A stretch of DNA of 64,000 nt from an uncultured Ectothiorhodospiraceae bacterium (GTDB lineage Bacteria > Pseudomonadota > Gammaproteobacteria > UBA9214), in the NCBI GenBank assembly GCA_964564245.1, contig CAZMAK010000002.1:21028-85027 (forward strand), in the 5' to 3' direction. A model generated the notes under the pieces. That model was given only the letters and a program-made list of their open reading frames with translations, was not told the origin of the DNA and searched no databases. Position 1 is the stretch's first letter; each line of letters opens with the position of its first letter. Shown here piece after piece: positions 37,461-56,954 of the stretch. The position numbers were made by a program, and so were the translations under genes.

Positions 37461-37461
37461 C

Positions 37462-39130: not shown

Positions 39131-39231
39131 AGTTTTACTCCTGTTGCTTCCCCGTTGGATTACATCAATTACTGCGTGCTGTACGGCTAAATCGGCAGCG
39201 CCCCTGTCAAGTTCAATAAAGATAACCGCAG

Positions 39232-40160: not shown

Positions 40161-40239
40161 TCCGGGTCGGGCGCAAACCGGTTTTCGGCCCCGGTCCGGA
40201 GCCGGGACCACCCGGTCGCGGTACCGGGTTCCGGCGTCG

Positions 40240-43026
40240 TCAGTAAAGGACGGCCACATAGGGGGCACCTCTCTCCTGTTTCGCGTACTTCGCCGGTACC
40301 AGTTCGGCCAGCGCCTGCAGGCTCTTGCCGATCCAGGCGTCATAGAGGCCCGATTGCAGCCGTTCTGCATTCGTTTCATGCAGACTGATAGCCTGCTCCT
40401 CGAACGGATAGGACTGGTCTTCCAGCAGGATGTTGTATTGCTCCAGTGCCTCGGCATCGAGGTTCTTCGGGCGTTCCGACTCCTGCAGTGCCGTGGCCAG
40501 CTGGCGGTACACCTGCGCAGTCTGGTAGGCGGCGGCGGTCGTGACCTCTGCCACACTGTACGCCGCCGCCTGCTCGTACTGCGCCAGGGTTTCCTGCATC
40601 AGGCGCTTTTTCAGCGCCAGGCTTTTCTTCAGGGGCAGACGCAGCGCAACGGCGCTGTAGCGGTCGTGTGCCCGGTCGGCCAGCTGCAGGAGCGCCGTGG
40701 CCGCCAGGTAACGCGTCCGGTCGGTGCGTTCCGCTCCGGCCTGCCGGTCAGCGCTGATGATCTCGTTGAGCCAGTGTTCCTGCGCGCGCGTGTCACCCTC
40801 CGCCAGGTACTGCCTGGCGATGTGGTGCATGGCCTCGATGGCGGGTTCGGCCGGACTCGGAAACTGCGTGAGGTAATAGCGGTAGACGTCGCCAGCCTGT
40901 TTCGCCGCACCGTTGTTGCGGTACAGCTCGGCGGCCTGCCACAGGGCATCCCGGCGTAACGTGGCATCGCCGGCGGCCCGGCCGATCCGTTCGAATTCCC
41001 GGGCCGCCTGCAGCGGCTGGCCCCCTTCCTGGTAGGCGGTCGCGAGCCGGCGTGTGACCTCGGCCTGGCGCGGATCGTCCGGGAACGCCGTACGGAACTC
41101 CTGCAGGCTGCTGGCGGCCGCCTTCCAGTTCTTCAGTTTCAGCAGGCCTGCCGCGGCGTCGTAATCCGCCGTGGCGACGATGCTGGCGCCCGGCGTGGCA
41201 GTACGTACCCGCTGGAAGTGCGCCACGGCCGCGGCCTCGTCGCCGCGCGCACGGGCCGCCTCACCCTGTTTGTAGATAGAGGCGGCAAGTTTCTCAACCA
41301 ACGCGGGTTTTTCCGGGGAATTCCCCGGTGTTCTGGCCAGGGTCTGCTGGTAGGCCTGCTCCGCCTGCAGGTAGTCACCGAGATCGAACCAGGCATGCGC
41401 CTGTACCGTCCAGCAGACCCGCTGCTGTTCGGCGGAGGCCCTCGTGCTGGACGTTACCTGCTTTGCCACCTGGATCGCGCGCGGGTTCTCATGCGCGGCC
41501 AGCAATTCCTCGGCGGACTTGCTCAGTACCGCCAGAGCCTGGGGGTGTTCCGGGAAGGTGGTGGCAAAACGCAGTGCATTGTTGAGCCCCTGCTCATGCC
41601 ATTGCGCACGTGCCGCGCCCTCCAGCAACGCCTCCTCCCTGGCATATGCCAGTACCGACGCGTAACCGGCCTCGGCGGCGTGCTCATGGCTGCCGTAGTC
41701 GTAGGCGGTATGGATATATTCCTGTGCGGCATCGCCGAAGTGGCCCGACTCGAACAGCAGTTCGGCCAGCAGGAAGTTCATGCCGGGGGCCTCGGCACTG
41801 TCACCAAACGAACCGAGAAAGCTGTGGTACCAGCGACTGGCCTCGGCGTAATCGGCGGCCTGCTTGCTGTGCTGTGCCTGTGCGTGGTAGTAGCGCGTCA
41901 GGTCGATCATGGTGCGCTTCAGGAAGCCGAGCACCTGTGTCGCCTCGGTCCTGTCATGATGTTTCCAGTACTCACCCTGCAGGTTGTAGCGATCGACGAA
42001 GGCCTTCTTGCTTTCCAGTACCAGGGTCGGGAACCCGCCGGACTGGTAGGCATCGATCACACGCATCTGGAATGCCGGTGCCTGCAGGTGCACCGGGTTG
42101 GCATCGACGAAGGCCTGGAAGGTCTGTGCCGCGTCGGTGTAACGCTCCTTGTCCAGGTAGAGCTCTCCCAACCGCTCGTATACCACGGCCTCGTAATCAC
42201 GGCTGCCCTGCTGACGAAACAATGCGGCGACGCTCTGCGGCCCCTCCTCGTACGAGAATGCCAGGCTCATGGCACGCAGGGTGTCGTCCACCCGTTCCTG
42301 TTCGGCACGGGACAACGGTTCCGGCGCGGTGCCGGCAGCACGGGTGAGCTTGCGGTCCAGCAAGGCCAGGAAGGTCGCATTGCTCTCGTCGTACAGACCC
42401 TGCTTGAACTCACTCCACCCCAGCTTGTAGAGCGATTGCTCGAAGAATGCACCCTGTGCGCCGGCCTTGACCACGGCGTGGTAGGCCTGCCCGGCCGCGC
42501 GGTAGTGCCGGCTGACGAACTGGATTTCCCCGATCCGGAACTGTGCTTCCTGACCATACCGGCTGTCCGGGTATTGCCCGACCAGGCGGGTCAACGTGGC
42601 GAGTGCCGGTTCCGGTTCCCCGCCCAGTTCATACGCACGCGCCAGCTGATAGAGCACGGCGTCGTTGTCCGGCCGGTCCGGGTAGGTCTCCAGTACCTGC
42701 CGGTACAGGCGAATGGAGTCCTGTACCTGCTGCGGTACCGGGGGTGCGTCATCGCCCGTGGATGCCGCCGGCATGGCCTCCGCCTCCAGGTTGATGTCGG
42801 CCAGCCGGCGCATGGCCTGCGGTCTTGCCGCAGTCCGGTCACCGCTTTCGAGGAAACTGCGATAGGCATTCATGGCCTGCTGTTCGCTGGCCACCAGTGG
42901 CTGATCCTCGATGTGTGGGGGGCGTGTGCCGAGATCCGCTATGGTCGGAGCCTCGTCCCCGTGCATCAGCGAACACCCGGCCAGCCCGGCCAGCAGCACG
43001 AAACACAGGTTGTCCAGCCGCTTCAC
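40240..43026 (-). CDS. Large TPR-repeat lipoprotein (928 aa)
   Basis: Lipobox LAGCS; many TPR-like helical repeats; ATGA overlap with the upstream TPR gene. Confidence 0.8.
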   Translation of the reverse strand: MKRLDNLCFVLLAGLAGCSLMHGDEAPTIADLGTRPPHIEDQPLVASEQQAMNAYRSFLESGDRTAARPQAMRRLADINLEAEAMPAASTGDDAPPVPQQVQDSIRLYRQVLETYPDRPDNDAVLYQLARAYELGGEPEPALATLTRLVGQYPDSRYGQEAQFRIGEIQFVSRHYRAAGQAYHAVVKAGAQGAFFEQSLYKLGWSEFKQGLYDESNATFLALLDRKLTRAAGTAPEPLSRAEQERVDDTLRAMSLAFSYEEGPQSVAALFRQQGSRDYEAVVYERLGELYLDKERYTDAAQTFQAFVDANPVHLQAPAFQMRVIDAYQSGGFPTLVLESKKAFVDRYNLQGEYWKHHDRTEATQVLGFLKRTMIDLTRYYHAQAQHSKQAADYAEASRWYHSFLGSFGDSAEAPGMNFLLAELLFESGHFGDAAQEYIHTAYDYGSHEHAAEAGYASVLAYAREEALLEGAARAQWHEQGLNNALRFATTFPEHPQALAVLSKSAEELLAAHENPRAIQVAKQVTSSTRASAEQQRVCWTVQAHAWFDLGDYLQAEQAYQQTLARTPGNSPEKPALVEKLAASIYKQGEAARARGDEAAAVAHFQRVRTATPGASIVATADYDAAAGLLKLKNWKAAASSLQEFRTAFPDDPRQAEVTRRLATAYQEGGQPLQAAREFERIGRAAGDATLRRDALWQAAELYRNNGAAKQAGDVYRYYLTQFPSPAEPAIEAMHHIARQYLAEGDTRAQEHWLNEIISADRQAGAERTDRTRYLAATALLQLADRAHDRYSAVALRLPLKKSLALKKRLMQETLAQYEQAAAYSVAEVTTAAAYQTAQVYRQLATALQESERPKNLDAEALEQYNILLEDQSYPFEEQAISLHETNAERLQSGLYDAWIGKSLQALAELVPAKYAKQERGAPYVAVLY

Positions 43027-44903
43027 GGCGTCCCTCCCTTGCTCACATGCAGGGCGCTGTCGTAGGTCTGCGCCAGTGCAAAGCGGGCCTGCACCGTGTA
43101 GGTGTCGATGCGTTTCTTCTGCCGTTCCAGTTCGTCGACGGCCAGCTGCTGCAACTGTGCGCCCTCTGCCAGCCGGGCCCGGTCGGTCCTGGCCAGCAGG
43201 GCCTGAATGGTCATGCGCCCGGTACGGATCCGGTTCGAGAAGTCGCGGAATTCCTCCGGGGTATCACTGCGCGCACTGGCCAGTTCGTCGAGTTTCTGCT
43301 GCGACTGCCCGAGCAGCTTCGCGAGCTCCTTCAGGCCGCGTTTTGCCTGCCACAGGCGTGACCGGAAATCCGTGCTCAGTTGCCAGCGCAGGACACCCTC
43401 GAGCAGCCGTTGCCGTTCCCGCAGGTTGGCGGTTCGCTTCGAATCCGGCAGCCGGTCGAGGCGGGCCTTGATGGATTGCAGCTTCTGCCACTGCTGCAGC
43501 TCGGTGGCGTTGGCCAGCGCCATCACGTCATTGCCGGTATCGGCCTGGCGTACCCGGTAGGCAAGCGTCTCGTAGCGGTTCTTCAGTGCCGCCAGGTTTG
43601 CACTCTTCAGTCCCCGCTCCGCCGCGGGACTGCGTTCGGCAAAGCGTGCCTTGCGGGCCGCCAGCATGTCATCGTAGGCATCCATGCTCGCTGCCCAGCG
43701 TTGCAGGTTATTGCGCAGCAGCAGCAGGTCCCGGTAGTTCTTCACGGCTTCCTGGAATTCGTGGGCCGCCATCAGGGTCAGCTGGTAACGCAGTGCCGGG
43801 GACTGGGTGTCAAGCGTGAGCTGCTGCAACCAGCCGGTACCGGTACGCAGATCCTGTTGCTGAAGAATATCCAGCAACTCACCGTTCCTGATTGATTTTA
43901 TGGAGTCATCCAGCTTTCCTTTCTCGCCCTGCAACAGGCTGATTGCATCGTTGTACTGCGCCACGGCGCGCCCGCGCAGCTGCATCCGCGTCAGGGCGTA
44001 CGGCACGGCCAGCAGGGCCTCCTGTACCGCCGGGTCGGTGGCGTCGCGCTGGCCGAGTTCGGTCCAGGGCAACAGTGCGTGATCGAACGCGCGGTTATTG
44101 GCATCGGCCCAGCCGGCGCCGAGCAGCGCCTTGTTGGAGTACGGCCCCTGCAGGCGGACGCGCTCCAGCGTGGCGCGTGACAGCTTGTCTTCGCCGTGTT
44201 GCAGATAGCTGTACCCGAGTGCGAGGTTGGCCTTGTCACGCAGGGTACGCTGCTCCTCGTTCTCGCTATCCATGCTGCCGATGGCGGCCAGGGTCTGCGC
44301 GCCGGCATCCAGCTGGCCGTTGCGGATCTGGGCCACACCGAGGTTGAAGGCCAGGTAGGGGGTCCATGCCCCGGCCTTGTGTGCGGTCTCGATCTGCCGG
44401 ATGGCATCCGTATTTCTGCCCAGCTGCAGCAGCATCAGGCTGCCCAGCAAGGCGCTTTCCGCACGGGTTGCCTGGCTCATCTCGCCACCGACCTGGCCGA
44501 GGGCCTTGAGCGCGGCCTGCGGATCCCCGCGCTCGTAGGAAATCTTCGCGAGGTAGTACCAGGCGCGGTTGCGCGTATCCGTGTCGCTGTGCCCTGCCAG
44601 CAGCTGCTCGAAGATGCGGGTTGCCTCGTTGCGCAGGCCGTAGGACAGGTCCAGGCCGCCCAGCAGCAGTTCCGCCTCGTCGGCATGATGCGGCAGTGCA
44701 TGCTGCGACTTCGCCACCTGCAGACGCACGATGCTGTTGAACCAGTCCTGCTGGTAGTAGTAGAACAGCGCCTCCCCGTACTGCAGGTCAAGGACGCTGG
44801 AGGGCCTGGCCGCTGCGCAGGAAGCCGTGCCCGACCAGAGCAGCAGCAGGCAGCACGTGAGCTGCCTGGTGCGCTGCAACAGTGGATGCCTGCCGGGTTT
44901 CAT
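43023..44903 (-). CDS. TPR-repeat protein with signal peptide (about 626 aa). Start trimmed to MKPGRH.
   Basis: Signal peptide CCLLLLWSGTASCAAA; TPR repeats and C-terminal coiled coil. Confidence 0.75.
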   Translation of the reverse strand: MKPGRHPLLQRTRQLTCCLLLLWSGTASCAAARPSSVLDLQYGEALFYYYQQDWFNSIVRLQVAKSQHALPHHADEAELLLGGLDLSYGLRNEATRIFEQLLAGHSDTDTRNRAWYYLAKISYERGDPQAALKALGQVGGEMSQATRAESALLGSLMLLQLGRNTDAIRQIETAHKAGAWTPYLAFNLGVAQIRNGQLDAGAQTLAAIGSMDSENEEQRTLRDKANLALGYSYLQHGEDKLSRATLERVRLQGPYSNKALLGAGWADANNRAFDHALLPWTELGQRDATDPAVQEALLAVPYALTRMQLRGRAVAQYNDAISLLQGEKGKLDDSIKSIRNGELLDILQQQDLRTGTGWLQQLTLDTQSPALRYQLTLMAAHEFQEAVKNYRDLLLLRNNLQRWAASMDAYDDMLAARKARFAERSPAAERGLKSANLAALKNRYETLAYRVRQADTGNDVMALANATELQQWQKLQSIKARLDRLPDSKRTANLRERQRLLEGVLRWQLSTDFRSRLWQAKRGLKELAKLLGQSQQKLDELASARSDTPEEFRDFSNRIRTGRMTIQALLARTDRARLAEGAQLQQLAVDELERQKKRIDTYTVQARFALAQTYDSALHVSKGGTP

Positions 44904-44926
44904 TGCATCCTGCCGGGATACGGGAG

Positions 44927-45478
44927 TTATTCCCATTCCTGGATGCTGAAGTCGGGTTGCTCGGTGGACGGGTTATCGACGATCTTCAACTCCACGAACC
45001 GCGCCCCCAGTCCCTTCTCGACGCTGACCGTGGCACCGCGCCGGTAGTCACGGCCATTGGGCCCCTTGCCGGTGTAGAAGGCGACCAGTTCATGGGAACC
45101 TGTCTTGAGGTTGCCCATGTACAGGCGCTGGACACCGCCGCGCTGCAGGGCCTCGATCTCGCGCGCGGTGTAAAGATAGTTGCTGACAACGTCGCCATCG
45201 ATCTTCAGTTGCACGGAATCCAGGCTGAAAAACTTGCCGACATCGAGCGAGACAAAGACCGCCAGCTGGGTACTGGCCGGGTACAGCAGGTCTTCTTCCA
45301 GCACGAACAGGTCACGGTTCAGTGCGATCACTTCCTGCTTGAGTGACTGGATATCGCCATCCAGCGTGGCCGCCTTGCCGGGGGCAGGTTCCGCGGCGGA
45401 GCTGACGGTCTGCACCAGCAGCAGCACGGTGCCCGCTACCAGTCGGATGATGCGTAAGGTGACAGGGTTGGTTGACAT
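44927..45478 (-). CDS. Secreted coiled-coil protein of unknown function (first gene of the TPR/ExbBD/TonB operon)
   Basis: Signal peptide; coiled-coil segment LDGDIQSLKQEVIALNRDLFVLEE. Confidence 0.55.
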   Translation of the reverse strand: MSTNPVTLRIIRLVAGTVLLLVQTVSSAAEPAPGKAATLDGDIQSLKQEVIALNRDLFVLEEDLLYPASTQLAVFVSLDVGKFFSLDSVQLKIDGDVVSNYLYTAREIEALQRGGVQRLYMGNLKTGSHELVAFYTGKGPNGRDYRRGATVSVEKGLGARFVELKIVDNPSTEQPDFSIQEWE

Positions 45479-45704: not shown

Positions 45705-46703
45705 CTATTGCTTTGCCGGTTCGAGCCCGTCCGAGTAGTGCAGCCTGCCCTCGTTGTCGACCAGGATCGCCTCTGTGTCCGGCAGGGAGTTGATCAGTTG
45801 CAGCCCCTTTTCCACGCCCAGGACGAAGACACTGGTGGACAATGCATCCGTGTCGGTGGCGTGGCCGGCGATGATGCTGGCACTGTGCAGCCGGCGTGCC
45901 GAGTCGCCGGTGCCGGGATCGATGATGTGGTGATAGCGCACCCCGTTTTCCTCGAAGAAACGCTCGTAGTCGCCGGAAGTGGAGATGGCGGCATTTTCCA
46001 GCGGTACAACACTGACCAGACCGTCGTGGTTGCGTGGATCGCGAATACCGACATTCCAGGGATGGTCGCGGTGGTTGCCGATCACCCGGCTGTCACCGCC
46101 GGCACTGACCAGTGCGTCCTGCACACCGGCCTGCAGCAGCAGATCGATACAGCGGTCGACGGCGTAGCCCTTGGCGATACCGCCAAGGTCGATGCGGACC
46201 CCCTTGTGCAGGAAGTGCACGGTGGAGTGTGCGGCATCGAGCTCGACAAAATGCCAGTTGATGTCCGGTACGGTGGCGGCCAGCTGGGCGCGGCTCGGGT
46301 GCCTGCCCTGGCGAAAGTCATACAGGTAGCCGGCGCTGGCGTAGGTGATATCAAATGCACCGTGGGTAATTTCCGAGTACTCCAGCGCCCTGTGGATCAG
46401 CCGGAACAGTTCCGGACTGACCGGTACCGGCTGCTGCGCGGCGAGACGGTTGACACTGGAGAGTTCGCTGTCCGGTTTCCAGGTGCTCATCAGGGTATCG
46501 ATGCGGCGCATTTCTGCCATCACCCTGTCGGCCAGCCCCTCCCCGCGCGTGCTGTCGTCGGTCCACAGTTCGACGCTGACCGAGGTGCCCATGATGGCGG
46601 CATCCCGGTGCAGCCAGCCGGCACCGGCGCCTGGCGACAGCAGGCAGGCCAGCAACAGGATCGGCAAACGGCAGGAACGGCGCATGGGCCGATTATCGGC
46701 CAA
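45705..46703 (-). CDS. apbE: FAD:protein FMN transferase (ApbE/Ftp)
   Basis: Signal/lipobox N-terminus; ApbE motifs AIMGTSVSVELW, IDLGGIAKGYAVD. Confidence 0.85.
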   Translation of the reverse strand: MADNRPMRRSCRLPILLLACLLSPGAGAGWLHRDAAIMGTSVSVELWTDDSTRGEGLADRVMAEMRRIDTLMSTWKPDSELSSVNRLAAQQPVPVSPELFRLIHRALEYSEITHGAFDITYASAGYLYDFRQGRHPSRAQLAATVPDINWHFVELDAAHSTVHFLHKGVRIDLGGIAKGYAVDRCIDLLLQAGVQDALVSAGGDSRVIGNHRDHPWNVGIRDPRNHDGLVSVVPLENAAISTSGDYERFFEENGVRYHHIIDPGTGDSARRLHSASIIAGHATDTDALSTSVFVLGVEKGLQLINSLPDTEAILVDNEGRLHYSDGLEPAKQ

Positions 46704-46728
46704 TGGCGCCGTTTCCGGAATGGCCGGG

Positions 46729-48315
46729 TCAGATGGTGCCGCTGACGACCGGGTTGAAGGCGGTGAGACTGTCCTGCATGGCCGCGTTGCCGAGGCCGTG
46801 GCCAGGGAACAGCGTGGAGAAGTTCCCCTGCTCGCCGTGCAGGGCCATGTAGTTGAGGATCACGGTCTGCGCCAGCAGGTTGACCTGGAGGGCGGCCGGT
46901 GTGGCGCTGGTCTCGACCGAGGCATCCGGACGCATCCAGCCGATCTGCTGGTGCCGCGCCTGCGCCACGGCATCCGCACCCAGCAACAGCGGGCGTGAGC
47001 CGGGATTGTACACCAGGAAGAACGAGCTGGCGGTGGACGAGTTGTCGCCGGTCCACACCCCCTTGCCGCCGCCTGCAGCACTGTTATCGATCATGCCATT
47101 ACTGGCAAGCGAGCCGTCGCTGAAGACGTAGATCATGATGGGCACCCCGACGCGTGCAGCGTATTCCAGGCAGGCACCCATGCAGCGGCCGGCACGCAGA
47201 TCGCGCAGCTCGCCGGTGGCGCGGTCGCCGGTATGGTAGTCAAAGCCACCCATGGAGATGGTGCCGGCACCGGCAAAGCCGTTCACTACCATCTTCATCA
47301 CCGACGCGGTCTTGCGGAATTCCGAGTCGTTATCGAACTCCGCCTGGCTGAAGATGCCGGTGGCGCCGACGATGTCGGGGTCCAGTGCCGGGTTCAGTGA
47401 GGACGGATCACCGAAGCGGTCGGCGATATCGGCCGCCTTGACGTAACCGCAACGCACCAGGTCCTTGATGACGGCATCGGCCGACACCCTGGTGTTGACG
47501 TTGTCGAGTTTCATCTTGCTGATCCGCTCGATGGACTCCATCACGGCGACGGCATCCTGCTGGGACAGCACGCCGATCAGCTGGCCGGTATCGACCATCC
47601 CGGTCACGTCCGAGGGGCGGTCCACCTTGGTCGGGCGCAGCGTCGGGTCGACCATCATGGCCGGTGCCATGGAGTTACCCCCGGATTCCGAGCTCTGCGA
47701 TCCGATCAGGGTCAGCAGGCTGCCGTCCGCACCGGCGCGTGCAATGCCGTACATCGGGTTGTGCGGGTTGTTGCTGGTGTCGTTGTCGGATCGGGCCGGG
47801 ATCACCGCACCGTTGATATCTGCGCTGCGTGCACCGGCCTTTTCGGTGATGCCCTGCAGCATGGCGCTGCTGGCATGGAACGCAAGCCCGAAGTCGCTGT
47901 TGGTGTAGCTGAGACCGGTTACCGGATCGATGGCGGACGGGATCATGTCGCCGGGCAGTCCCAGCTTGCTGTAGCCCTGTGTGCTCAGAAAATCGAGCTG
48001 CCCGCCCTGCTGCCCGACCAGCACGTTGGAACCGGCAATGTTGGCACCACCGGCCAGGTCGAAGCAGATGAACGGGATCTTGCCGGCGCCCAGCGACTTG
48101 ATCCCGCAGGATGCCTTGAGGGCGCTGATGTCTGAAGACAGGGCGGCCGCCGCCTGGCGTGGACTGGCAAACAGCCCGAACAGGGTCGGTGCGGTCACCA
48201 TCCCCATGCCGGCGATCAGTCCCTGCCCGAGGAATTCACGTCGTGTCACCGGACGGCCGTGGCTGTTCAGGCGCAGCGGCTCGTTCAGGTCACGGAATTT
48301 ACGGTTTCTGGCCAT
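46729..48315 (-). CDS. Tat-exported protein of unknown function (DUF1501/DUF1552-like partner of CxxCH proteins). Start trimmed to MARNRK.
   Basis: Twin-arginine motif TRREFLGQGLIAG; FICFDLAGGAN and GGFDYHTGDRA resemble the alkaline-phosphatase-clan DUF1501 family; 25 nt upstream of apbE. Confidence 0.6.
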   Translation of the reverse strand: MARNRKFRDLNEPLRLNSHGRPVTRREFLGQGLIAGMGMVTAPTLFGLFASPRQAAAALSSDISALKASCGIKSLGAGKIPFICFDLAGGANIAGSNVLVGQQGGQLDFLSTQGYSKLGLPGDMIPSAIDPVTGLSYTNSDFGLAFHASSAMLQGITEKAGARSADINGAVIPARSDNDTSNNPHNPMYGIARAGADGSLLTLIGSQSSESGGNSMAPAMMVDPTLRPTKVDRPSDVTGMVDTGQLIGVLSQQDAVAVMESIERISKMKLDNVNTRVSADAVIKDLVRCGYVKAADIADRFGDPSSLNPALDPDIVGATGIFSQAEFDNDSEFRKTASVMKMVVNGFAGAGTISMGGFDYHTGDRATGELRDLRAGRCMGACLEYAARVGVPIMIYVFSDGSLASNGMIDNSAAGGGKGVWTGDNSSTASSFFLVYNPGSRPLLLGADAVAQARHQQIGWMRPDASVETSATPAALQVNLLAQTVILNYMALHGEQGNFSTLFPGHGLGNAAMQDSLTAFNPVVSGTI

Positions 48316-48371
48316 GCATCGTTCCTCGGTCTCTGTCCTGTTCGTTACACATTCGCCGCTGTCACTCTCGA

Positions 48372-50912
48372 CTATTGCACCAGCATGGCCGCACTGCCCA
48401 GCATGGCCGCACAGGTCGCCTTCACGATCTGTTCCGAACGTACGCTGGTGGCACAGGTCGGACTCGCACCACTCGCACAGGCCGTCAGGGTCTGGATCAG
48501 GGACTCCAGTTCGGTCGTGGTGGCGGCCGGGTCCGGCTGTACCGTCAGCCCGGTATTGAATACATGATCCAGCAGTGGCTGGATCACCAGGTTGCGCTTG
48601 GCCGGGCTGTCGAATGCCGTATCGGCCGTCTCCGGGGGCAGCCCGCTGGCGAAGAATCCCGGGAAGTAGGCCTCGCGGGTGATGCTGCCCTGGTTGTCGA
48701 CCAGGGCACTGCAATACTCGATGGCCAGCTGCGCGATCGCCATCTGCTGCGCGGACAGGAAGCCGTCGATGCTTTCCACTGTCGGCAGCTGCTGCTTGAT
48801 GGTCGTGTAGACGTTCTTCACGCCGCTCTGTTCGCGACTGACGCCGGTGATTGCCGCCATGCTGGCGTCGATCTCGTCGAACGTGCGGATGCCGATATCG
48901 GAGGCCGGCGGCAGGTCCGGCGGCGCGGCCGGTGCCAGCGGGGCTGCTTCGGTAACGACATGGGTATCATTGCCCAGCGTCTCGAAGGTCAGGAAGAACT
49001 CGTCGTAATCCGGCCCCTTCTCCAGTGCGATGACGGTACCGAGCGGAGACAGTACCTGTCCGGTACCCGGCGTATAGAGCGCTGCACTGATACTCGTGTC
49101 CAGGTTGCGGTAGGCCTGGCCGACCGCGGCCTCCTTGCCGTTGATGCCGATGCGCATGCCGGACAGCGGGATGTTGTCGGGCGTCACGGCCGGATCGAGT
49201 ACGATGAAACGCGGCTTGTTGAACAGGTAGCTGTAGCTGTCGAACTGGCTGACCTCGAACAGCACATAGCTGTCCGCGATGCCGGTGTGTGCGGAGACAT
49301 TGAACAGCACGAAGAACTTCTCGCCGACTCCGACACTGTAGTTCTGCTGGATCTGTTCCGGTGTCAGGGCACGATTGTGGATGGCCACCATGCGCAGCTT
49401 GCCCTGCCACTGGCGGTCACCCGACACCTCGTTGCCGAGCACGAAGGCGAAGCTGTCATCCCAGTCGTTCAGATTACCGCCCGGGACCGGGTCCATGTCT
49501 CCGGTGAACACGCCGTTGACGTAGACGCGCCGGCCGTTGACCGGGTCGTAGGTCACCACCACGTGCTGCAGTGTGGCCTGCAGGTCCTCGTCCGCATCGG
49601 CGGTCTTCAGTTCCGGCATGCCGTTCGCGTCGGTCGTGCTGCTGCGCTGCAGGAAGTCGTAGCTGTACTTGGTCTGGCCCAGCGTGAAATTGCGTGCGTC
49701 CGTACCTGCCGAGTAACTGACGATCCTGGCCGGTCCTTCCTGCGAGATGTTGGCCGGTACCACCCAGGCCTCGATGCTGTACTCGCCGGTGGCGGTGATC
49801 AGGTCGTGCAGCTTGCGACTGCTGGTGGTGGTGGCCTGTGCCTTGCCGCTGGTGATGTCGATACCCCAGCCGCCGACCCAGGTCACGCCACCGCTCAGGG
49901 TCAGGTGCATTTCTGGCGACACACCACTGGTGTCATAGGCAATATTGCCGCTGCCCTCCTTGAACTGGTAGAGCGCGATCACGTTGTCATCGATGCGGTT
50001 GCCACCGCTGGCGACAATGCCGTCCACCAGCTTCATGGCCTTGCTGGTCACCAGCGCGGGGTTGATCTGTGTCGGGCTGATTGCACCGGCGAACTGGCTG
50101 ATGGCGGCCTCCATGATATCCGCCGAGGCGGCACAGTCGGAGCTGCCGGTATTGTTCGGGTCCCAGCAGTTGTGAAACTCGTTGCGCAGACGCACCACGA
50201 AGCGCGAATTGGCCGGATTGTCCAGGTCCATCTTGGATTTGGCATTCTCGTAGGCCGAATCCGGATCGGCAGTGGCGAAGAACGGGGCCTGCGGGGTACT
50301 GGACGAGTCGGTATGGCAACCCGAGCAGTGGGCAGTCAGGATCGGGTGGACCGTGCTGGCAAACAGCCCGGAATCCGCCGGGAAGCTCTTGCTGTCGCCC
50401 GGGTCGACCAGCACCGGTGCGGTCAGCGCGACCACGGTGCCGCCACTGGTCACGCCACCTGCCCAGGCATTGATATAGGCGGTAATGGTGTCGGCGCAGG
50501 CCTGCCAGTCCGCGGGCGTCGTACCCAGCCAGCAGTTGTGACCGCTGGCCACCTTGGTGACCATGGTTGAGCTGGCCGGGCTGTCGAGATTGATGACCGT
50601 GTTGGCTTCCGCGTAGGCCAGGTTGATGTCGTCACTGCGCACGAAGGCCGGCGTCTGGCCACCGGCGACGTGACAGCTGCCGCAGCGGTTGGTCGGAACG
50701 AGCTTGTCCCAGACATTCAGCTTGAAGGCCTGGATGTCGGCGGTCACGGGTGCGGGTCCGCTGTAGTTCGAGGCGTCACTGACGGTAACCGACGGCGCCT
50801 GGTTGGTCGTGGTGTCCGCGCCACCGCCACAGGCGCCGAGCGCCAGCGTGACCAGCAGCAGGGCCAGTACACGGACCCTCGTGTGCAGCATTTGCCTGAT
50901 GGATTCGCTCAT
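48372..50912 (-). CDS. Secreted lipoprotein with two CxxCH...HNCW cytochrome-c-like modules and a LamG-like (concanavalin) domain
   Basis: Lipobox LALGACGGG; CGSCH...GHNCW and CSGCH...FHNCW repeats; LamG-like segment (GEYSIEAWVVPANISQE); Planctomycete-cytochrome-type architecture. Confidence 0.7.
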   Translation of the reverse strand: MSESIRQMLHTRVRVLALLLVTLALGACGGGADTTTNQAPSVTVSDASNYSGPAPVTADIQAFKLNVWDKLVPTNRCGSCHVAGGQTPAFVRSDDINLAYAEANTVINLDSPASSTMVTKVASGHNCWLGTTPADWQACADTITAYINAWAGGVTSGGTVVALTAPVLVDPGDSKSFPADSGLFASTVHPILTAHCSGCHTDSSSTPQAPFFATADPDSAYENAKSKMDLDNPANSRFVVRLRNEFHNCWDPNNTGSSDCAASADIMEAAISQFAGAISPTQINPALVTSKAMKLVDGIVASGGNRIDDNVIALYQFKEGSGNIAYDTSGVSPEMHLTLSGGVTWVGGWGIDITSGKAQATTTSSRKLHDLITATGEYSIEAWVVPANISQEGPARIVSYSAGTDARNFTLGQTKYSYDFLQRSSTTDANGMPELKTADADEDLQATLQHVVVTYDPVNGRRVYVNGVFTGDMDPVPGGNLNDWDDSFAFVLGNEVSGDRQWQGKLRMVAIHNRALTPEQIQQNYSVGVGEKFFVLFNVSAHTGIADSYVLFEVSQFDSYSYLFNKPRFIVLDPAVTPDNIPLSGMRIGINGKEAAVGQAYRNLDTSISAALYTPGTGQVLSPLGTVIALEKGPDYDEFFLTFETLGNDTHVVTEAAPLAPAAPPDLPPASDIGIRTFDEIDASMAAITGVSREQSGVKNVYTTIKQQLPTVESIDGFLSAQQMAIAQLAIEYCSALVDNQGSITREAYFPGFFASGLPPETADTAFDSPAKRNLVIQPLLDHVFNTGLTVQPDPAATTTELESLIQTLTACASGASPTCATSVRSEQIVKATCAAMLGSAAMLVQ

Positions 50913-50915
50913 GGC

Positions 50916-52109
50916 TCAGTCACCCATGCAGTAGACCGCGGTTTCGGCAAACGCGGTCTTCATGTTGTAGTTCTGGGAGCGGAAATCCGCCGTGATTGCA
51001 TCGACCTCGTTGCGGTCCGCCGTATTGCCCGGTTCGCGCAGGCAGACGGTACGGAAGATCTTTTCCACCTGGCACTGTGCGAAGGCATTGCTGTCCGCCA
51101 GTTCCTGCCCCAGCGACTTGGCGCCGCTGCCACTGCCGGTCAGCGCGGAATCCCAGCCCAGCAGGGCATTCGGGCCGTTGCGCCAGTAATTGTCCCAGTG
51201 GTCGTCCGGGGTCACATAGCCGTATTTGAAGTTGTCCGAGTTGATGGTGTACTTGGGCTGCACGACACCGTCGGTGTACTCCAGGCTGCCGCTGGTGTCG
51301 TTGAAGTTGTAGTAGGCAAAGGCCTGCACCATCGGGTCCATGCCGCTGTGACAGCCCACGCAGGAGTTCAGGAAGATGCGGCTGTCTCCGCCCGGGCTGC
51401 GCGAGACATCCTGCCGGATCCGGTCCGGCGGACGTGTGGTGTCCTTGAGCTCCTCCATGTCGCTGCACAGGTGATTGAGCATCGTGAAGCGGAACATGGC
51501 GCGGTTGGTGCCGGCAATGAAGAATGCGGCGGCGGCGGCGCGCGTGGTCATGACGCCGGCCGTCGCGGCGGGTGGCAGGGAGGTCAGTGCGGACTGCTGG
51601 CGCTGTACCAGCGCGGTCTTCAGGTCGATGCCCTGGTTCTCCAGGGCCTCGTAGTGGTCGTTGTTGTCCATGCTGTAGGGCGGCAGTCCCAGTGCGGGAT
51701 CGCCGATGTACAGGATGTCGCCGGACAACACCTGGTTGAACGGTACGTCGTCGCGGATCATGCCGATGACCGTGGCGGTGTAGTCATTGAGCGGTGCAAA
51801 TACCGTCTGGTCACGGTTGGTCCAGGGGGTGACGAAATTCTTCAGCGTCACGTTGTAGAAGGCACTGTTGTCCATGGCCATCTGTGCGGCGCCAATGGCG
51901 TCATTGTTGACGATGGCGGTTTCCATGTCTCCCAGAACGGTTTCCGATGGCGGGATGCCGGCCAGCCGGTCATGGATGCGCTTTGCCTGGCGGCGTTCGA
52001 GGTCGCCGGCCAGGGCGGTGGCCGCGACGGTCACGGTCAGCAGGATTAACAGGCCCGCGTGCCGGAGCACCGGAAAACGACGGATAGTTCGTTCGGTTGG
52101 AGAACGCAT
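50916..52109 (-). CDS. Secreted CxxCH-motif protein (cytochrome-c-like domain protein of unknown function)
   Basis: Signal peptide; single CVGCH motif; 3 nt upstream of the 846-aa gene. Confidence 0.65.
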   Translation of the reverse strand: MRSPTERTIRRFPVLRHAGLLILLTVTVAATALAGDLERRQAKRIHDRLAGIPPSETVLGDMETAIVNNDAIGAAQMAMDNSAFYNVTLKNFVTPWTNRDQTVFAPLNDYTATVIGMIRDDVPFNQVLSGDILYIGDPALGLPPYSMDNNDHYEALENQGIDLKTALVQRQQSALTSLPPAATAGVMTTRAAAAAFFIAGTNRAMFRFTMLNHLCSDMEELKDTTRPPDRIRQDVSRSPGGDSRIFLNSCVGCHSGMDPMVQAFAYYNFNDTSGSLEYTDGVVQPKYTINSDNFKYGYVTPDDHWDNYWRNGPNALLGWDSALTGSGSGAKSLGQELADSNAFAQCQVEKIFRTVCLREPGNTADRNEVDAITADFRSQNYNMKTAFAETAVYCMGD

Positions 52110-52150
52110 CGATTATGCCCCGGCTCTGGTTAGTTGGTCGGGATGCCCTT

Positions 52151-52189
52151 CGGTCCCTGGGTTCCTGTGAGCATCGGTCCCTGTGAGCA
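52151..52189. promoter_or_regulatory. Tandem copies of the element TCGGTCCCTG(GGTTCC)TGTGAGCA in a divergent promoter region
   Basis: CGGTCCCTG at 52151 and 52175, CTGTGAGCA at 52166 and 52181. Confidence 0.25.
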
Positions 52190-52351
52190 AATCCTGATGG
52201 CTGGATGAGAAAAATTCTGTGACCCACCTCGCGGTTCGGTACTGCCGGTATCCCTATAGTGACTGTGCGTATTTGCAGCCACGGCAACTGTGCGGCCGGT
52301 CACAACCGGCTGCACCGTTATCAGGTTTTCCATCCGGAGCGCCGATTACCC

Positions 52352-54934
52352 ATGACCATGAACATCCATTCCAGAAACATCCCTGCAGCATTCCTGGCCA
52401 CCTGGCTGGCTGCCGCGCTGCTGTTGTCCGGCTGTGGCGGCGGTAGCGGGGGTAACGGACAGGACCCGGACCCGCTGGTGTCGGATTACGGCATGGCGTT
52501 CGTCAAACGGCCGCTGGCCGTGGATGGAACGACGGGTGCCGTCATACAGCCGGACATCACGGAGGTGGAATCCTACACAGCGGGTGGTGACCTGTATTAC
52601 CGCGACCTCGTTTCGCCCGGCGCCCCGCAACGCAACATCACCGGCGCGGTGACCGGCGGCCTGGGGGATGTCAAGGACGTCGAGGTCTCATACGACGGTA
52701 TGCGCCTGCTGTTTGCCCTGCGCCTGCCCGATATCGACGGCCTCGATCCCGAGGACCAGCCGACCTGGAATATCTGGGAATACGATATCCAGACAGATGA
52801 CCTGCATCGCGTCATCAGCTCGGACATCACGGCGGAGGCCGGCCAGGATATCGCGCCGCACTACCTGCCGGATGGCCGCATCATCTTTTCCTCGACGCGC
52901 CAGCGTCAGTCCAAGGCGACACTGCTCGATGAAAACAAGGCACAGTTTTCCGCGCTGGTTGAGGATCTCGGTCTCGGGGAGCACGCCATGGTCCTGCACG
53001 TCATGGATGGCGATGGCGGTAATATCCACCAGGTGTCGATGAACCAGAGTCACGACCTGGTGTCGACGGTGCTGGACACCGGCGAGGTGGTATTCAGCCG
53101 CTGGGACCACATGGGGGGTCGTGACGCCGTCAGCCTGTACCGGATGCATCCGGACGGATCCGAGTTGCAGCCGTACTACGGCGTGCACAGCCATGACACC
53201 GGCACCAATGGCGCCACGGTACAGTTCCTGCAGCCGCACCAGTTGCAGGATGGACGACTGATGACCATCCTGCTGCCGTTTACCGGCTCCTGGCGTGGCG
53301 GTGACCTGGTGACGATCGATGTCGACAATTACCTCGACAACACCTATGCGACGGCCGCCAACCAGGGTGTGCTGTCCGGCCCGGCCCAGGAAGCGGCTAC
53401 CGCCAACGAAGTGCATACCGATGGAACCATTTCCCCCGGCGGACGGTTCCGGTCGGCGTGGCCGCTGAATGACGGAACCGGCCGCGTACTGGTCAGCTGG
53501 AGTGCGTGCCGCGTACTGGTGAACAACCAGCCCCAGCCGTGCACGGCCGCCAACCTGGCAGCCCCGGCGCCGGTCGAAGCCGACCCGATCTACGGCATCT
53601 TCCTGTACGACCGGGACAACGGGACCCAGTTGCCGATCGTGGTGCCGCAGGAAGGCTTCGAGTTCAGCGACGTGGTGGCTGCCACCCCGCACCCGGTGCC
53701 GCCGATCCTGTATGACAAGCAGCGCGGGGTCGAGCTGGAGTCGCAGGCCTACGACGAAGGGGTCGGCTATCTCGACATCCGCAGCGTCTACGATGTCGAC
53801 GGTGTCGATACTGCGCCGGGTGGCATTGCGGCCACCGCCGATCCGGTACAGACACCGGCGTCCGCGCGCCCCGCCCGCTTCCTGCGCATCGTCAAGGCCG
53901 TCGGTATCCCCGACCGGAACACCAGGGTCGTGCCGGCCACCGCCTTCGGGCGCAGCACCGGGCAACTGATGCGCGAGATCATCGGCTACGTACCGGTGCA
54001 GCCGGATGGTTCAGTGCGCGTGAAGGTGCCGGCCAATGTACCGCTGGCCATCAGTGTGCTGGATGCCGAGGGCAAGCGCATCGGCGCCCGGCACCAGAAC
54101 TGGCTGCAGGTGCTGCCGGGCGAGACGGTGCAGTGCAACGGCTGCCACGACCACGCCAGTGGTGTCGCGCATGCCAATCCCCGGGGACCGGCGCCGGTCT
54201 GGGGCGGTGCCCAGGCCACCGGCGTAGAATTTCCCGATACCGACCCTGCCCTGTCACCGGATTATGGCGAGACCATGGCCGAGACCCTGACTCGCTTCGA
54301 ACCGGCCACCCTGCTCCCTGCCGTCGACGTGAGCTATGAAGACGTCTGGACCGATCCGAACGTGCAAACGCCGGACGCCTCGTTTTCCTATCGCTACGCC
54401 GACCTGACCACCCCGGTACCGACCACGGCGGCCTGCCAGACCGCCTGGACTCCCCTGTGCCGGATCGTCATCCACTACGTGCAGCACATCCACCCGCTGT
54501 GGAGTTTCGACCGCGGTGCCAACACCTGCACGAGTTGCCACAACCACGTCGATGCGGCCAATGCCCCCATGGTGCCGGCGGCACAGCTCGACCTGAGCGA
54601 CGGGGTCGATCCGGTCGTCACGGAACAGTTCAGTGCCTACCGTCAGCTGCTCTTCCCGCATGACGAGCTGGAAATCGGCACGTCCGGCAACCTGGAGCCA
54701 GTGATGGTGCCGGGACCGCCGGACCCGGTTACGGGCCTGCCGACGGCCCCGGTCACGGTGACGGTGAATCCGGTGATGAGTCCGGCGGGCGCCCGTGCCA
54801 GCGCCGCCTTCTTCGCGCCCTTCGCCGCCGGCGCATCACATGACGGATTTCTGACGCCTGCAGAATTGCGGCTGTTGGCCGAATGGCTGGATATCGGCGC
54901 GCAGTATTACAACGATCCGTTCGCCGTACCGTGA
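52352..54934 (+). CDS. Lipoprotein with PD40/TolB-like beta-propeller repeats and two CxxCH motifs. Start trimmed to MTMNIH.
   Basis: Lipobox LLSGCGGG; PD40-like DIAPHYLPDGRIIFSS; CNGCH and CTSCH motifs. Confidence 0.7.
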   Translation: MTMNIHSRNIPAAFLATWLAAALLLSGCGGGSGGNGQDPDPLVSDYGMAFVKRPLAVDGTTGAVIQPDITEVESYTAGGDLYYRDLVSPGAPQRNITGAVTGGLGDVKDVEVSYDGMRLLFALRLPDIDGLDPEDQPTWNIWEYDIQTDDLHRVISSDITAEAGQDIAPHYLPDGRIIFSSTRQRQSKATLLDENKAQFSALVEDLGLGEHAMVLHVMDGDGGNIHQVSMNQSHDLVSTVLDTGEVVFSRWDHMGGRDAVSLYRMHPDGSELQPYYGVHSHDTGTNGATVQFLQPHQLQDGRLMTILLPFTGSWRGGDLVTIDVDNYLDNTYATAANQGVLSGPAQEAATANEVHTDGTISPGGRFRSAWPLNDGTGRVLVSWSACRVLVNNQPQPCTAANLAAPAPVEADPIYGIFLYDRDNGTQLPIVVPQEGFEFSDVVAATPHPVPPILYDKQRGVELESQAYDEGVGYLDIRSVYDVDGVDTAPGGIAATADPVQTPASARPARFLRIVKAVGIPDRNTRVVPATAFGRSTGQLMREIIGYVPVQPDGSVRVKVPANVPLAISVLDAEGKRIGARHQNWLQVLPGETVQCNGCHDHASGVAHANPRGPAPVWGGAQATGVEFPDTDPALSPDYGETMAETLTRFEPATLLPAVDVSYEDVWTDPNVQTPDASFSYRYADLTTPVPTTAACQTAWTPLCRIVIHYVQHIHPLWSFDRGANTCTSCHNHVDAANAPMVPAAQLDLSDGVDPVVTEQFSAYRQLLFPHDELEIGTSGNLEPVMVPGPPDPVTGLPTAPVTVTVNPVMSPAGARASAAFFAPFAAGASHDGFLTPAELRLLAEWLDIGAQYYNDPFAVP

Positions 54935-54956
54935 TGACTGACGAGTAGAACTGTCT

Positions 54957-55730
54957 GTGAATCGAGCCGGGGAGGAACGCGGTTGCCGGGGACGCCTGCA
55001 CTGGTTGGCAGGTGTCCTGCTGTACGGGTGTGCGCTGGCGGCACAGGCCGCGGATGCGGACTACTACCAGGTGCGCGTGGCGGCCCCTTACCTGGAGTTG
55101 CATACCGGCCCCGGACGCGGCTACCCCGTATTCTACGTGGTCGACCGCGGCGAACTGGTCGACGTGGTCAAGCGCCGCACGGACTGGTTCCTGGTGCGCA
55201 GTGCGCGCGGCAAGGAAGGCTGGGTGAAGCGTGCCGACATGGAACTGACCGTTTCGCCGGAAGGTGCCCCGACACAGTTTTCCGAGGCCGGGTTCGGGGA
55301 TTTTTCCCGGCGCCGCCGGGAACTCGGGGTGATGGCAGGGGATTTCGAGGGGGCAAATGTCATGACCACCTATGCCGGTTACTACCTGACCCGCAACCTG
55401 TCGGCGGAGCTGCAGTTTTCGCAGGTGTTCGGAAGCTATTCCAATGCGCTCAGCGCCACGGTCAACGTGCTGGCGCAACCGTTTCCGGAGTGGCGCCTGT
55501 CGCCCTATTTTCTGCTGGGTACCGGCGTCATCCGCACCAACCCGAATGTCACGCTGGTGAGCGAGCAGGACCGTAACGAGCAGATTGCACAGGCCGGGAT
55601 CGGCGCGCGCTGGTATCTGACCCGTCGCTTCATCCTGCGGGCCGAATACCAGAACCACGTCATCTTCCAGAACACGGATGACAACCAGGAGATCAACGAA
55701 TGGAAAGCCGGGTTTGCCTTTTTCTTCTGA
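54957..55730 (+). CDS. Outer-membrane beta-barrel protein with N-terminal SH3b domain
   Basis: Signal peptide; SH3b-like YYQVRVAAPYLELHTGPG...WVKRADM; amphipathic beta strands ending in C-terminal FAFFF. Confidence 0.65.
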   Translation: MNRAGEERGCRGRLHWLAGVLLYGCALAAQAADADYYQVRVAAPYLELHTGPGRGYPVFYVVDRGELVDVVKRRTDWFLVRSARGKEGWVKRADMELTVSPEGAPTQFSEAGFGDFSRRRRELGVMAGDFEGANVMTTYAGYYLTRNLSAELQFSQVFGSYSNALSATVNVLAQPFPEWRLSPYFLLGTGVIRTNPNVTLVSEQDRNEQIAQAGIGARWYLTRRFILRAEYQNHVIFQNTDDNQEINEWKAGFAFFF

Positions 55731-55735
55731 GACCG

Positions 55736-56371
55736 GTGCTGGCGCCGGTGCTGGTGGTCGCCCTGGGCGGTTGTTCGTGGCTGCACGACAGGGAACAACC
55801 GGTCTACAGCGATTCGGAACCGGTGATCAAGCCGGAGATCGAACGGCGCACCATCACGGAGGCCAACATCGACAGCGAGGACATCGAGGTCGGTGCCTTC
55901 GCCGGCGTGATGAGTATCGAGGACTTCGGCAGCAATGTCGTGGCCGGTGCCCGGTTCGATTATCACGTGACCGAGGATTTCTTCGTCGAGGGCGCACTTG
56001 GCGCGAGCCGTGCCGGCAAGACCAGCTATGAGACCCTGAGTGGCGGTTCACAGCTGCTGACCGGCAGCCAGCGCAACCTGCGCTACTACAACCTGTCCGC
56101 GGGCTACAACCTGCTGCCGGGGGAGAGTTTCTTCGGGGGCAAGCATGCCTTCAACAGCGCTGTATACCTGATGGCAGGGGTCGGCAACACCGAGTTTGCC
56201 GATGAAAGCCACTTTACCGTCAACGCCGGTGCCGGCTACCGTTTCCTGGTCAACGACTGGGTGGCGCTGCATCTCGATTTCAAGGACCACATCTTCAGTT
56301 CCGATCTGCTTGGAACCAGCAAGACCACCCACAACCTGGAAGCTACTGCCGGTGTATCCGTATTCTTCTGA
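55736..56371 (+). CDS. Outer-membrane beta-barrel lipoprotein. GTG 55736 preferred; the ORF-track ATG 55700 overlaps the preceding gene.
   Basis: LAPVLVVALGGCS lipobox; C-terminal ...GVSVFF; OmpA-like 8-strand barrel pattern. Confidence 0.55.
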   Translation: MLAPVLVVALGGCSWLHDREQPVYSDSEPVIKPEIERRTITEANIDSEDIEVGAFAGVMSIEDFGSNVVAGARFDYHVTEDFFVEGALGASRAGKTSYETLSGGSQLLTGSQRNLRYYNLSAGYNLLPGESFFGGKHAFNSAVYLMAGVGNTEFADESHFTVNAGAGYRFLVNDWVALHLDFKDHIFSSDLLGTSKTTHNLEATAGVSVFF

Positions 56372-56381
56372 GGAGGCTCAC

Positions 56382-56954
56382 ATGCGTAACCTGATTCCTG
56401 CACTGCCGAAACCGGTCAGCCATTCATTTCTTTACGGCATGGCGCCTCTGCGCCTTTGCGTGAAAAACCTGTTTGCGCCGTTCATGGGCGCCGCCCTGAT
56501 CCTGCTGGCGAGCGTCGCGGTGGCCGGCACCACGGCGTCCCCGGCGCCGGACTTCACCCTGAAGAGCAACAGCGGCGAAAACCTGAAGCTCAGCGAGCTG
56601 CGTGGCGATGTCGTGCTGATCAATTTCTGGGCGTCCTGGTGCGGACCCTGCCGGCAGGAGATGCCGTTGCTGAGCGAACTGCATGACAAGTACAAGGATC
56701 TGGGCTTCACCGTGCTGGGTGTCAACGTGGAGGAGAATTCCGCCCAGGCACGCAAGCTGCTGAAGGAGTCTCCGGTCAGCTTCCCGGTGCTGTTCGACAA
56801 TGACAGCACGGTCAGCAAGGAATACAACGTGGTCGCGATGCCGAGCACGGTACTGGTGGATCGCGATGGCAACGTGCGTTACCTGCACAAGGGCTACCAG
56901 CCGGGCGATGAAACCACTTACCTGGACAAGGTGCGCAACCTGATCCGGGAGTGA
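56382..56954 (+). CDS. TlpA-family periplasmic thiol:disulfide oxidoreductase
   Basis: AGGAGG RBS; signal/TM; FWASWCGPCRQE active site. Confidence 0.8.
   Translation: MRNLIPALPKPVSHSFLYGMAPLRLCVKNLFAPFMGAALILLASVAVAGTTASPAPDFTLKSNSGENLKLSELRGDVVLINFWASWCGPCRQEMPLLSELHDKYKDLGFTVLGVNVEENSAQARKLLKESPVSFPVLFDNDSTVSKEYNVVAMPSTVLVDRDGNVRYLHKGYQPGDETTYLDKVRNLIRE

Follow-up and report, generated by a model that had tools for sequence, protein, structure and literature searches.

The stretch analysed here, referred to as the window, is 64 kb of contig CAZMAK010000002.1 from an uncultured Ectothiorhodospiraceae bacterium, and the feature under study is a cluster of four minus-strand genes encoding the proteins P1, P2, P3 and ApbE (Table 1). 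The open reading frames (ORFs) and their coordinates agree with a first-pass annotation of this DNA, which had described four co-directional genes separated by gaps of 3 to 56 nt. The gaps between P1 and P2, P2 and P3, and P3 and ApbE are 3, 56 and 25 nt respectively, the last of which becomes 43 nt if ApbE begins at its first ATG. The start codon chosen for P3 is backed by an alignment of homologues, and no terminator-like sites were found in the junctions of the four genes. The extracytoplasmic destination proposed for the gene products is supported. A second set of genes, divergent from P1, encodes DUF3570, DUF4266 and a TlpA-type oxidoreductase among others. The idea that these genes belong to a wider island is strongly borne out by the gene order across more than 100 loci. 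The window holds a copy of this island, which is conserved in the Gammaproteobacteria and some other lineages, and the overall reading of it as an extracytoplasmic redox system fed by a flavin cassette has about even chances.

Table 1. Genes and sites of the locus, in window coordinates.
Feature	Coordinates	Strand	Description
P1	50916-52109	(-)	397 aa, Sec-type signal, CVGCH at residue 250 (C250/C253/H254)
P2	48372-50912	(-)	846-aa lipoprotein, lipobox LALGAC|GGG
P3	46729-48315	(-)	528 aa, Tat-exported, begins MARNRK, then TRREFLGQG
ApbE	45705-46703	(-)	332 aa, PF02424, signal or lipoprotein-type N-terminus
CRP-type palindrome	52289-52304	.	TGTGCGGCCGGTCACA; one mismatch to TGTGA-N6-TCACA; within intergenic region 52110-52351
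HZS-alpha-like lipoprotein	52352-54934	(+)	861 aa, beta-propeller region and two CxxCH; divergent from P1
SH3 domain and small outer-membrane beta-barrel protein	54957-55730	(+)	gene-order position conserved
Outer-membrane beta-barrel lipoprotein	55700-56371	(+)	TIGR04565 OMP_myx_plus, 173 bits
TlpA/ResA-type periplasmic thiol:disulfide oxidoreductase	56439-56954	(+)	CxxC kept in 103/104
DUF4266 small lipoprotein	56960-57181	(+)	PF14086, ends CGC
DUF3570	57114-58331	(+)	PF12094, probably outer-membrane beta-barrel; DSISGAS at S95, VISGAS at S105
Downstream block	36525-45478	(-)	183-aa secreted protein, three TPR proteins, ExbB, two ExbD, TonB-like

The first gene product, P1, has the secretion signal and the single CxxCH motif that had been ascribed to it, and this motif is retained in 116/116 homologues. 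The search of P1 with hidden Markov models (HMMs) returned a borderline match to PSD2 (DUF1585), at 26.0 bits against a cut-off of 25.8. Among its homologues, 30/31 match PSD2 (E<=1) and 28/31 give weak matches to PSCyt3 with a best E-value of 0.0077, although the P1 of the window is not one of the latter. Because of these matches, P1 is assigned as a distant PSCyt3/PSD2 (DUF1588/DUF1585)-type protein on sequence grounds, and as a weak relative of that group. The Tat-exported DUF1552 partner that would adjoin such a protein is not seen here, P3 being without a DUF1552 match. The comparison of P1 with P2 by hhalign did not find a shared domain, and the profiles of P1, P2 and P3 gave nothing meaningful against PDB sequences, leaving all three without a solved relative.

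The next gene encodes P2, in which CGSCH at residue 77 and CSGCH at residue 196 are followed by HNCW at residues 125 and 247, forming two CxxCH...HNCW...C modules at residues ~57-150 and 182-276. The two modules and the LamG domain of the first-pass annotation are therefore present (Laminin_G_3 on residues 367-522, E 3e-22), with a spacing between CxxCH and HNCW of 43-46 residues and not the approximately 55 given there. The AlphaFold model of P2 (predicted local distance difference test, pLDDT, 63) contains the two CxxCH modules as helical domains, the LamG domain, a second beta-sandwich at approximately residues 530-645 and a confidently modelled C-terminal helical domain at residues 678-845. 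Module 2 (C196/C199/H200, H247/C249) is invariant in 125/125 homologues and module 1 is retained in 111/125; module 1 and the LamG domain are dispensable in distant lineages. With this degree of conservation in both proteins the CxxCH motifs are not chance occurrences, and P1 and P2 would carry c-type haem. The HMM search identified no PSD or PSCyt domain in P2, so the proposal of PSCyt/PSD-type proteins holds for P1 only.

The third gene encodes P3, which had been described as a DUF1501/DUF1552-type protein. This assignment did not stand, as P3 has no match to Pfam or NCBIfam HMMs even at E<=10, and ten relatives of 30-40% identity gave only chance-level matches to unrelated families (E 0.25 and 0.86, within E<=1). 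P3 does possess both a twin-arginine signal and an alkaline-phosphatase-like fold, and its structural model predicts an alkaline-phosphatase-superfamily core; DUF1501 itself belongs to the alkaline-phosphatase-like Pfam clan. A profile of the P3 family finds just 1495 clusters among 1.84 billion representatives, for which reason P3 appears to be a compact unnamed family of its own that does not merge with the very large DUF1501/DUF1552 families. Identity among the listed gammaproteobacterial homologues is 67-93%, and the motifs DLAGGxNIAGSN, DDTxNNPHNP, GGYDYH and TDGG are found family-wide. No match to P3 was obtained by tblastn against plasmids. Residues 1-22 of P3 (window 48250-48315), which precede the twin arginines, show a conserved PL.H..H..P.TRR.FL pattern down to relatives of 30% identity, which is unusual for the n-region of a signal peptide; a Tat chaperone of its own may dock there. 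Several NCBI records of metagenome-assembled genomes label P3 homologues "general secretion pathway protein GspF", a misnomer, since P3 is not GspF.

The conservation of the cluster was followed through the relatives of P3, which were confirmed in at least 550 of at least 599 pattern-matching stretches from species-representative genomes, while a scan with distant members of the family, the query being a subset of the broad P3 alignment, confirmed 557 metagenome stretches. In total 165 loci were surveyed with HMMs of the window proteins, with GC3-based gene calling on the high-GC loci. Named carriers include Paraglaciecola, Aliiglaciecola, Glaciecola, Microbulbifer, Kangiella, Neptunicella, Corallincola, Thiodiazotropha and Sedimenticola. 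Wherever 4.2 kb or more of upstream sequence is available, P1 and P2 lie alongside P3 (113/113 loci), and this association holds down to P3 proteins of 30-40% identity. Where at least 9.5 kb upstream is available, DUF3570 is encoded in 86/93 loci and the hydrazine synthase (HZS)-like gene in 87/93, and the order is always DUF3570-DUF4266-TlpA-OMP-SH3/OMP-HZS-like (OMP, outer-membrane protein), divergent from P1-P2-P3. The neighbours named in the first-pass annotation, an HZS_alpha lipoprotein with two CxxCH motifs, two outer-membrane barrels and the TlpA-DUF4266-DUF3570 unit, are all present in the window. One locus that seemed to lack P3 (L166, CP070821.1) was rejected as a probable scaffolding artefact, as it contains 300 N and a P2 truncated at residue 738; the missing DUF3570 cassette of that locus probably has the same origin.

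The gene content of more distant lineages separates a core from its accessories. Three loci with P3 proteins approximately 37-39% identical to the distant scan query (L102, L107 and L132) encode a contiguous ApbE-DUF3570-DUF4266-TlpA set directly divergent from P1-P2-P3, with neither the HZS-like gene nor the small barrels present, and L107 also includes a complete DsbD in the cluster. Multihaem c-type cytochromes, divergent from P1-P2-P3, stand in for the DUF3570 cassette at two metagenome loci of high GC content, with 21 haems in L127 (168-2720) and nine in L140 (94-2460). The low-GC loci L086-L090 have a split P2, in which the C-terminal helical domain forms its own ORF of approximately 250 aa between P1 and P3, and the gene after P3 encodes haem module 2 twice, along with the second beta-sandwich; the LamG domain is missing. 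From this gene content, P1, haem module 2, the C-terminal domain of P2 and P3 appear to constitute the core, with LamG, haem module 1, the HZS-like protein and the small barrels as accessories, and the electron partner of the trio appears to be interchangeable. Other genes were noted at these loci. A divergent conserved CxxCH protein (YPxFIxKGYxxCxxCH) without a Pfam match is encoded in L086-L090, a GspD-type secretin gene with a full model match (Secretin, Secretin_N, N0) directly follows P3 at L132:9780-11912, and an ORF with a GspD-type N-terminus follows P3 at L102:10154-10840.

The final gene of the cluster encodes ApbE as annotated, with a match to PF02424 of 296 bits (cut-off 25.6) that covers profile positions 1-266 of 266. 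The score of 146 bits against the 498 required by the NCBIfam E. coli-type equivalog makes it a family member and not that equivalog. It is the single ApbE within the window, where DUF3570 alone among the ORFs of at least 100 aa contains the motif D[GSA]x[ST][GS]A[ST]. Both DUF3570 sites read SGAS in the window; the A-S of these sites is invariant in 52 relatives and the G position varies (S, G or A). No conserved [ST]GA[ST] or Dxx[ST][GS]A[ST] motif was found in P1, P2 or P3, the SGAS tetrapeptide at residue 814 of P2 being kept in 14/125 homologues and therefore not conserved. Flavinylation of DUF3570 by its cognate ApbE at two [S/T]GA[S/T] sites has been demonstrated experimentally, for the Chlorobium luteolum protein only (Méheust et al. 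2021, eLife, PMC8238504). As DUF3570 holds the sole canonical motif of the window, with an invariant A-S and published flavinylation, and the SGAS of P2 is not conserved, the ApbE of the window very probably flavinylates DUF3570 rather than P1, P2 or P3. The expectation that a protein modified with flavin mononucleotide (FMN) takes part outside the cytoplasm is accordingly upheld for DUF3570, and not for a partner among the three operon proteins.

The position of ApbE is more variable than that of the trio. Among loci whose downstream flank is 6 kb or longer, ApbE was found on that side of P3 in 32/92 and not found there in 60/92. It directly adjoins P3 on the same strand in approximately 19 loci and, also directly adjacent, is convergent in approximately 11, is displaced by 1.3-1.5 kb through inserted genes in approximately ten, and lies further off in the rest; one locus (L167) has a response regulator and an Hpt protein between P3 and ApbE. 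In distant lineages ApbE stands beside DUF3570, from which it is 10 kb apart in the window. The description of an ApbE-terminated operon consequently applies to this lineage and not to most relatives, and the separate placement of apbE seen in other lineages points in part to separate transcription there. No NQR or RNF substrate with which ApbE might be paired is present in the window.

Motifs of several neighbouring proteins are also conserved. The CXC motif of DUF4266 is kept in 91-92/92 relatives, its first Cys in 92/92, and both CxxCH motifs of the HZS-like lipoprotein are kept in 95/96. The TlpA of the window scores best against ResA and DsbE-type models. The lipoboxes of P2, the HZS-like protein, the second barrel protein and DUF4266 have no Asp at position +2, and DUF3570 and both small barrels end in a C-terminal Phe. 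A lipobox without Asp at +2 and a C-terminal Phe are localisation rules that point to the outer membrane, and an outer-membrane topology is predicted for these proteins on that basis.

The intergenic region between P1 and the HZS-like gene includes the only regulatory clue at the locus. CRP-type sites with at most one mismatch occur in 27/102 related intergenic regions, compared to a mean of 1.1 and a maximum of 4 in random segments of the same length drawn from the same loci, and nine copies in the P1/HZS-like intergenic regions of loci L004-L167 are perfect palindromes. This is the only motif clearly enriched in the divergent promoter region, and it suggests that a Crp-family regulator may control the divergent promoters. 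In the same region, motifs for Fur, PhoB, sigma-54, sigma-E, OxyR, Zur and NarL did not exceed the counts obtained from shuffled sequence, and ArcA-like (9 vs 0 shuffled) and FNR-type (6 vs 2) patterns were slightly above such counts. Direct repeats of TCGGTCCCTG (two copies) and CCTGTGAGCA (two copies) are located at 52150-52189 in the same region and were not found in any related locus.

The block downstream of ApbE follows P3 or ApbE in approximately 40% of relatives (183-aa and TPR proteins in 38-39/92 loci, ExbB in 31), and one of its TPR proteins has YbgF/BamD-like repeats. No TonB-dependent receptor was seen among the island ORFs examined. A thioredoxin-2 gene (TrxC-type, Zn-ribbon and thioredoxin) is found at 34027-34587 on the minus strand, 2 kb past the TonB-like gene and after an ABC transporter pair; its product could be the cytoplasmic electron source for a DsbD-type pathway, or its presence could be coincidence. 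Outside the conserved island, a 616-aa FG-GAP/ASPIC-UnbV repeat protein is encoded at 62122-63972 on the minus strand, beside a 576-aa TPR protein and an alpha/beta hydrolase.

The features of the island are probably best read together as a haem-dependent redox module, the P1-P2-P3 trio, wired to the known input cassette DsbD/TlpA-DUF4266(CXC)-DUF3570(FMN), for which ApbE would serve as the maturase. DsbD and TlpA are reductive thiol carriers, and FMN can bridge two-electron thiols and one-electron haem carriers. Because of these properties, the lipoboxes without Asp at +2 and the C-terminal Phe of the barrels, a relay can be drawn in which electrons would pass from cytoplasmic thioredoxin to a DsbD encoded elsewhere in the genome, then to TlpA and DUF4266, and from there to the FMN on the DUF3570 barrel. 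The flavin would convert two-electron thiol chemistry into one-electron steps. Haems on P1, on P2 and on the HZS-alpha-like lipoprotein would take up the electrons, which would end at a P3 metal site or the catalytic haem of the HZS-like protein, in or close to the outer membrane. Multihaem cytochromes would replace this electron input in some lineages. The specific order of thiol, flavin, haem and P3 is put forward tentatively, at somewhat less than even chances, its direction, sequence and terminal chemistry being deduced from the components. The fullest form of the proposal, a new trans-envelope reductase that runs from thiols through the FMN barrel and outer-membrane haem lipoproteins to redox chemistry at a P3 metal centre, is unlikely as it stands.

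A number of results weigh against this interpretation. The P2 matches to cytochrome c HMMs are only sub-threshold, and for P1 and the P2 modules the scores were 17 bits against 27 for Cytochrome_CBB3 and 17.1 against 21.3 for Cytochrom_C. The model of P3 has a pLDDT of 60 and a predicted TM-score (pTM) of 0.65 with residues 177-302 unmodelled, a conserved nucleophile could not be assigned, and we know of no alkaline-phosphatase-superfamily enzyme for which a redox reaction is established as the normal role. DsbD was not found in the 64-kb window. The co-presence of ApbE and DUF3570 is not significant (Fisher p 0.23), in a comparison with only six loci without a DUF3570 match, two of which are probably cut off by the flank. 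Finally, L088-L090 and L106 carry the trio without DUF3570 or a cytochrome in their 10-kb flanks, so the coupling of trio and cassette is not obligatory.

Such solitary trios would also suit a module that works by itself in hydrolysis or in the processing of glycans or phosphoesters, in which LamG would bind carbohydrate and P3 would be an esterase. The cassette and the TonB block would then be mere neighbours. The P3 fold is that of phosphatases and sulfatases, LamG resembles lectin and carbohydrate-binding module domains, the PSCyt proteins of Verrucomicrobia are linked by context to sulfatases and carbohydrate use, and the CRP-type site hints at carbon-status control. A plain hydrolase would, however, give little reason for haem motifs to be invariant in two obligate partners, and the divergent arrangement of trio and cassette, seen in 92% of loci, reappears among distant lineages in a different, minimal form. 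The LamG domain is moreover dispensable, and multihaem cytochromes replace the cassette in other lineages. A purely hydrolytic module is considered improbable, without being remote.

The best matches of TlpA to ResA and DsbE-type models, and the five CxxCH sites and conserved extra cysteines encoded in the island, would fit a biogenesis role in which TlpA and DUF4266 keep the cysteines of the five apocytochrome CxxCH sites or of HNCW...C reduced, as CcmG and ResA do. The cassette also occurs with unrelated clients, it is not obvious what a flavinylated barrel would contribute to the reduction of apocytochromes, and the TlpA/DUF4266/DUF3570/ApbE quartet is found in hundreds of genomes without these cytochromes (PMC8238504); a dedicated biogenesis function is decidedly unlikely. 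It is more doubtful still that the CxxCH motifs bind metals or form disulfides in a non-redox structural or adhesive envelope complex, as might be thought from the sub-threshold cytochrome matches of P2, the lack of solved relatives among those searched and the extra conserved cysteines, which suggest disulfides. The CxxCH motifs, including the His, are strictly invariant across 30-100% identity, P1 is related to PSCyt3, crystallography has confirmed a c-type haem domain in a protein with a related PSD domain, and the alignment of the HZS-like neighbour with hydrazine synthase alpha takes in the CxxCH that binds haem there. The last alternative, in which ApbE is integral to the P1-P2-P3 operon and one of the three proteins is its FMN acceptor, can cite the 25-nt spacing without a terminator-like site, the same-strand adjacency in related loci, the SGAS of P2 and the unidentified ApbE substrates that, by the account in Méheust et al. 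(PMC8238504), remain, but it is made highly improbable by the poorly conserved P2 tetrapeptide, the otherwise missing flavinylation motifs and the convergent or separated position of ApbE, or its absence from the flank, in most relatives, with ApbE beside DUF3570 in distant lineages.

With the redox module wired to the flavinylation cassette as the favoured reading, the locus physically links in one island two widespread extracytoplasmic sets whose functions are unknown, namely DUF3570/DUF4266/TlpA and the PSCyt/PSD-type proteins with Tat partners. It offers a defined electron-input module and a candidate output module in cultured marine carriers (Microbulbifer, Paraglaciecola, Kangiella and Neptunicella), and it flags P3 as a highly conserved family without a Pfam or NCBIfam model. 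If the trans-envelope reductase were true, it would assign to the alkaline-phosphatase superfamily a redox role not established for it, and would open a first way into the function of the PSCyt/PSD-plus-Tat-partner systems, for which an explanation has been lacking since 2004.

The closest known counterpart is the recurrent cluster of ApbE, DUF3570, a thioredoxin-like protein and DUF4266 reported by Méheust et al. (PMC8238504), which includes DsbD in 227 cases and lacks it in 316. The DUF4266 described there is small and secreted and has CXC at its C-terminus, and the article leaves the function of the cluster open. The window resembles it in having all four components, two flavinylation-type sites in DUF3570, the CXC end of DUF4266 and an extracytoplasmic ApbE, and its lack of a co-located DsbD corresponds to the 316 clusters, whereas L107 has DsbD. 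It differs in that the quartet is split over 45705-58331, with ApbE at a distance from DUF3570, and P1-P2-P3, the HZS-like lipoprotein and the two outer-membrane barrels are not mentioned as partners in the passages of the article on the cluster. The DUF4266/DUF3570/TlpA trio has also been noted beside unrelated JDVT-CTERM proteins (Haft 2023), which is why the view of it as a portable electron-supply cassette for different clients fits.

The second comparison is with the pairs of PSCyt3/PSD2 with Tat-exported DUF1552 and of PSCyt1/2-PSD1 with DUF1501 in Planctomycetes and Verrucomicrobia, of unknown function (He et al. 2017, PMC5615132). The likeness lies in a CxxCH protein with a C-terminal PSD2-like region beside a Tat-exported partner and in LamG (pfam13385), a common accessory of PSCyt proteins. 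The differences are that P1 is marginal, P2 has no PSD or PSCyt match and P3 is neither DUF1552 nor DUF1501, and that the island contains a trio coupled to a flavinylation cassette. Among PSD-domain proteins, Cbp2D has a crystallographically confirmed c-type cytochrome domain. P3 has 6-12% identity to members of the alkaline phosphatase superfamily (PhoK 5xwi, NPP 7mw8, S1 sulfatases and phosphoethanolamine transferases) and differs from them in having no sequence-level match, CxPxR or assigned Ser/Thr nucleophile, in its large unmodelled insertion at residues 177-302 and in its obligate haem-protein partners, which are unlike those of characterised members.

The HZS-like lipoprotein is collinear with hydrazine synthase alpha of Kuenenia (5c2v_A, E 8e-6), with a middle domain matching PF18582 at 61 bits and two CxxCH motifs in corresponding places. 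It scores 44 bits against an equivalog cut-off of 800 (NF052339), the island showed neither a beta nor a gamma subunit gene of HZS, and its carriers are not anammox bacteria, so its identification as a hydrazine synthase was rejected. In MtrCAB porin-cytochrome conduits, a periplasmic carrier is combined with an outer-membrane barrel holding an inserted redox partner and with outer-membrane lipoprotein haem proteins. There is no homology to MtrCAB, and the redox centre of the barrel would be a thiol-fed covalent FMN in place of a decahaem; the likeness is one of logic, by analogy, some relatives having a GspD-like secretin or multihaem cytochromes beside the trio. The literature on the component domain families yielded no description of the trio combined with the DUF3570 cassette. 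The flavinylation cassette is already known, and what is new here is the P3 family, the obligate trio and the systematic association of this trio with the DUF3570 cassette.

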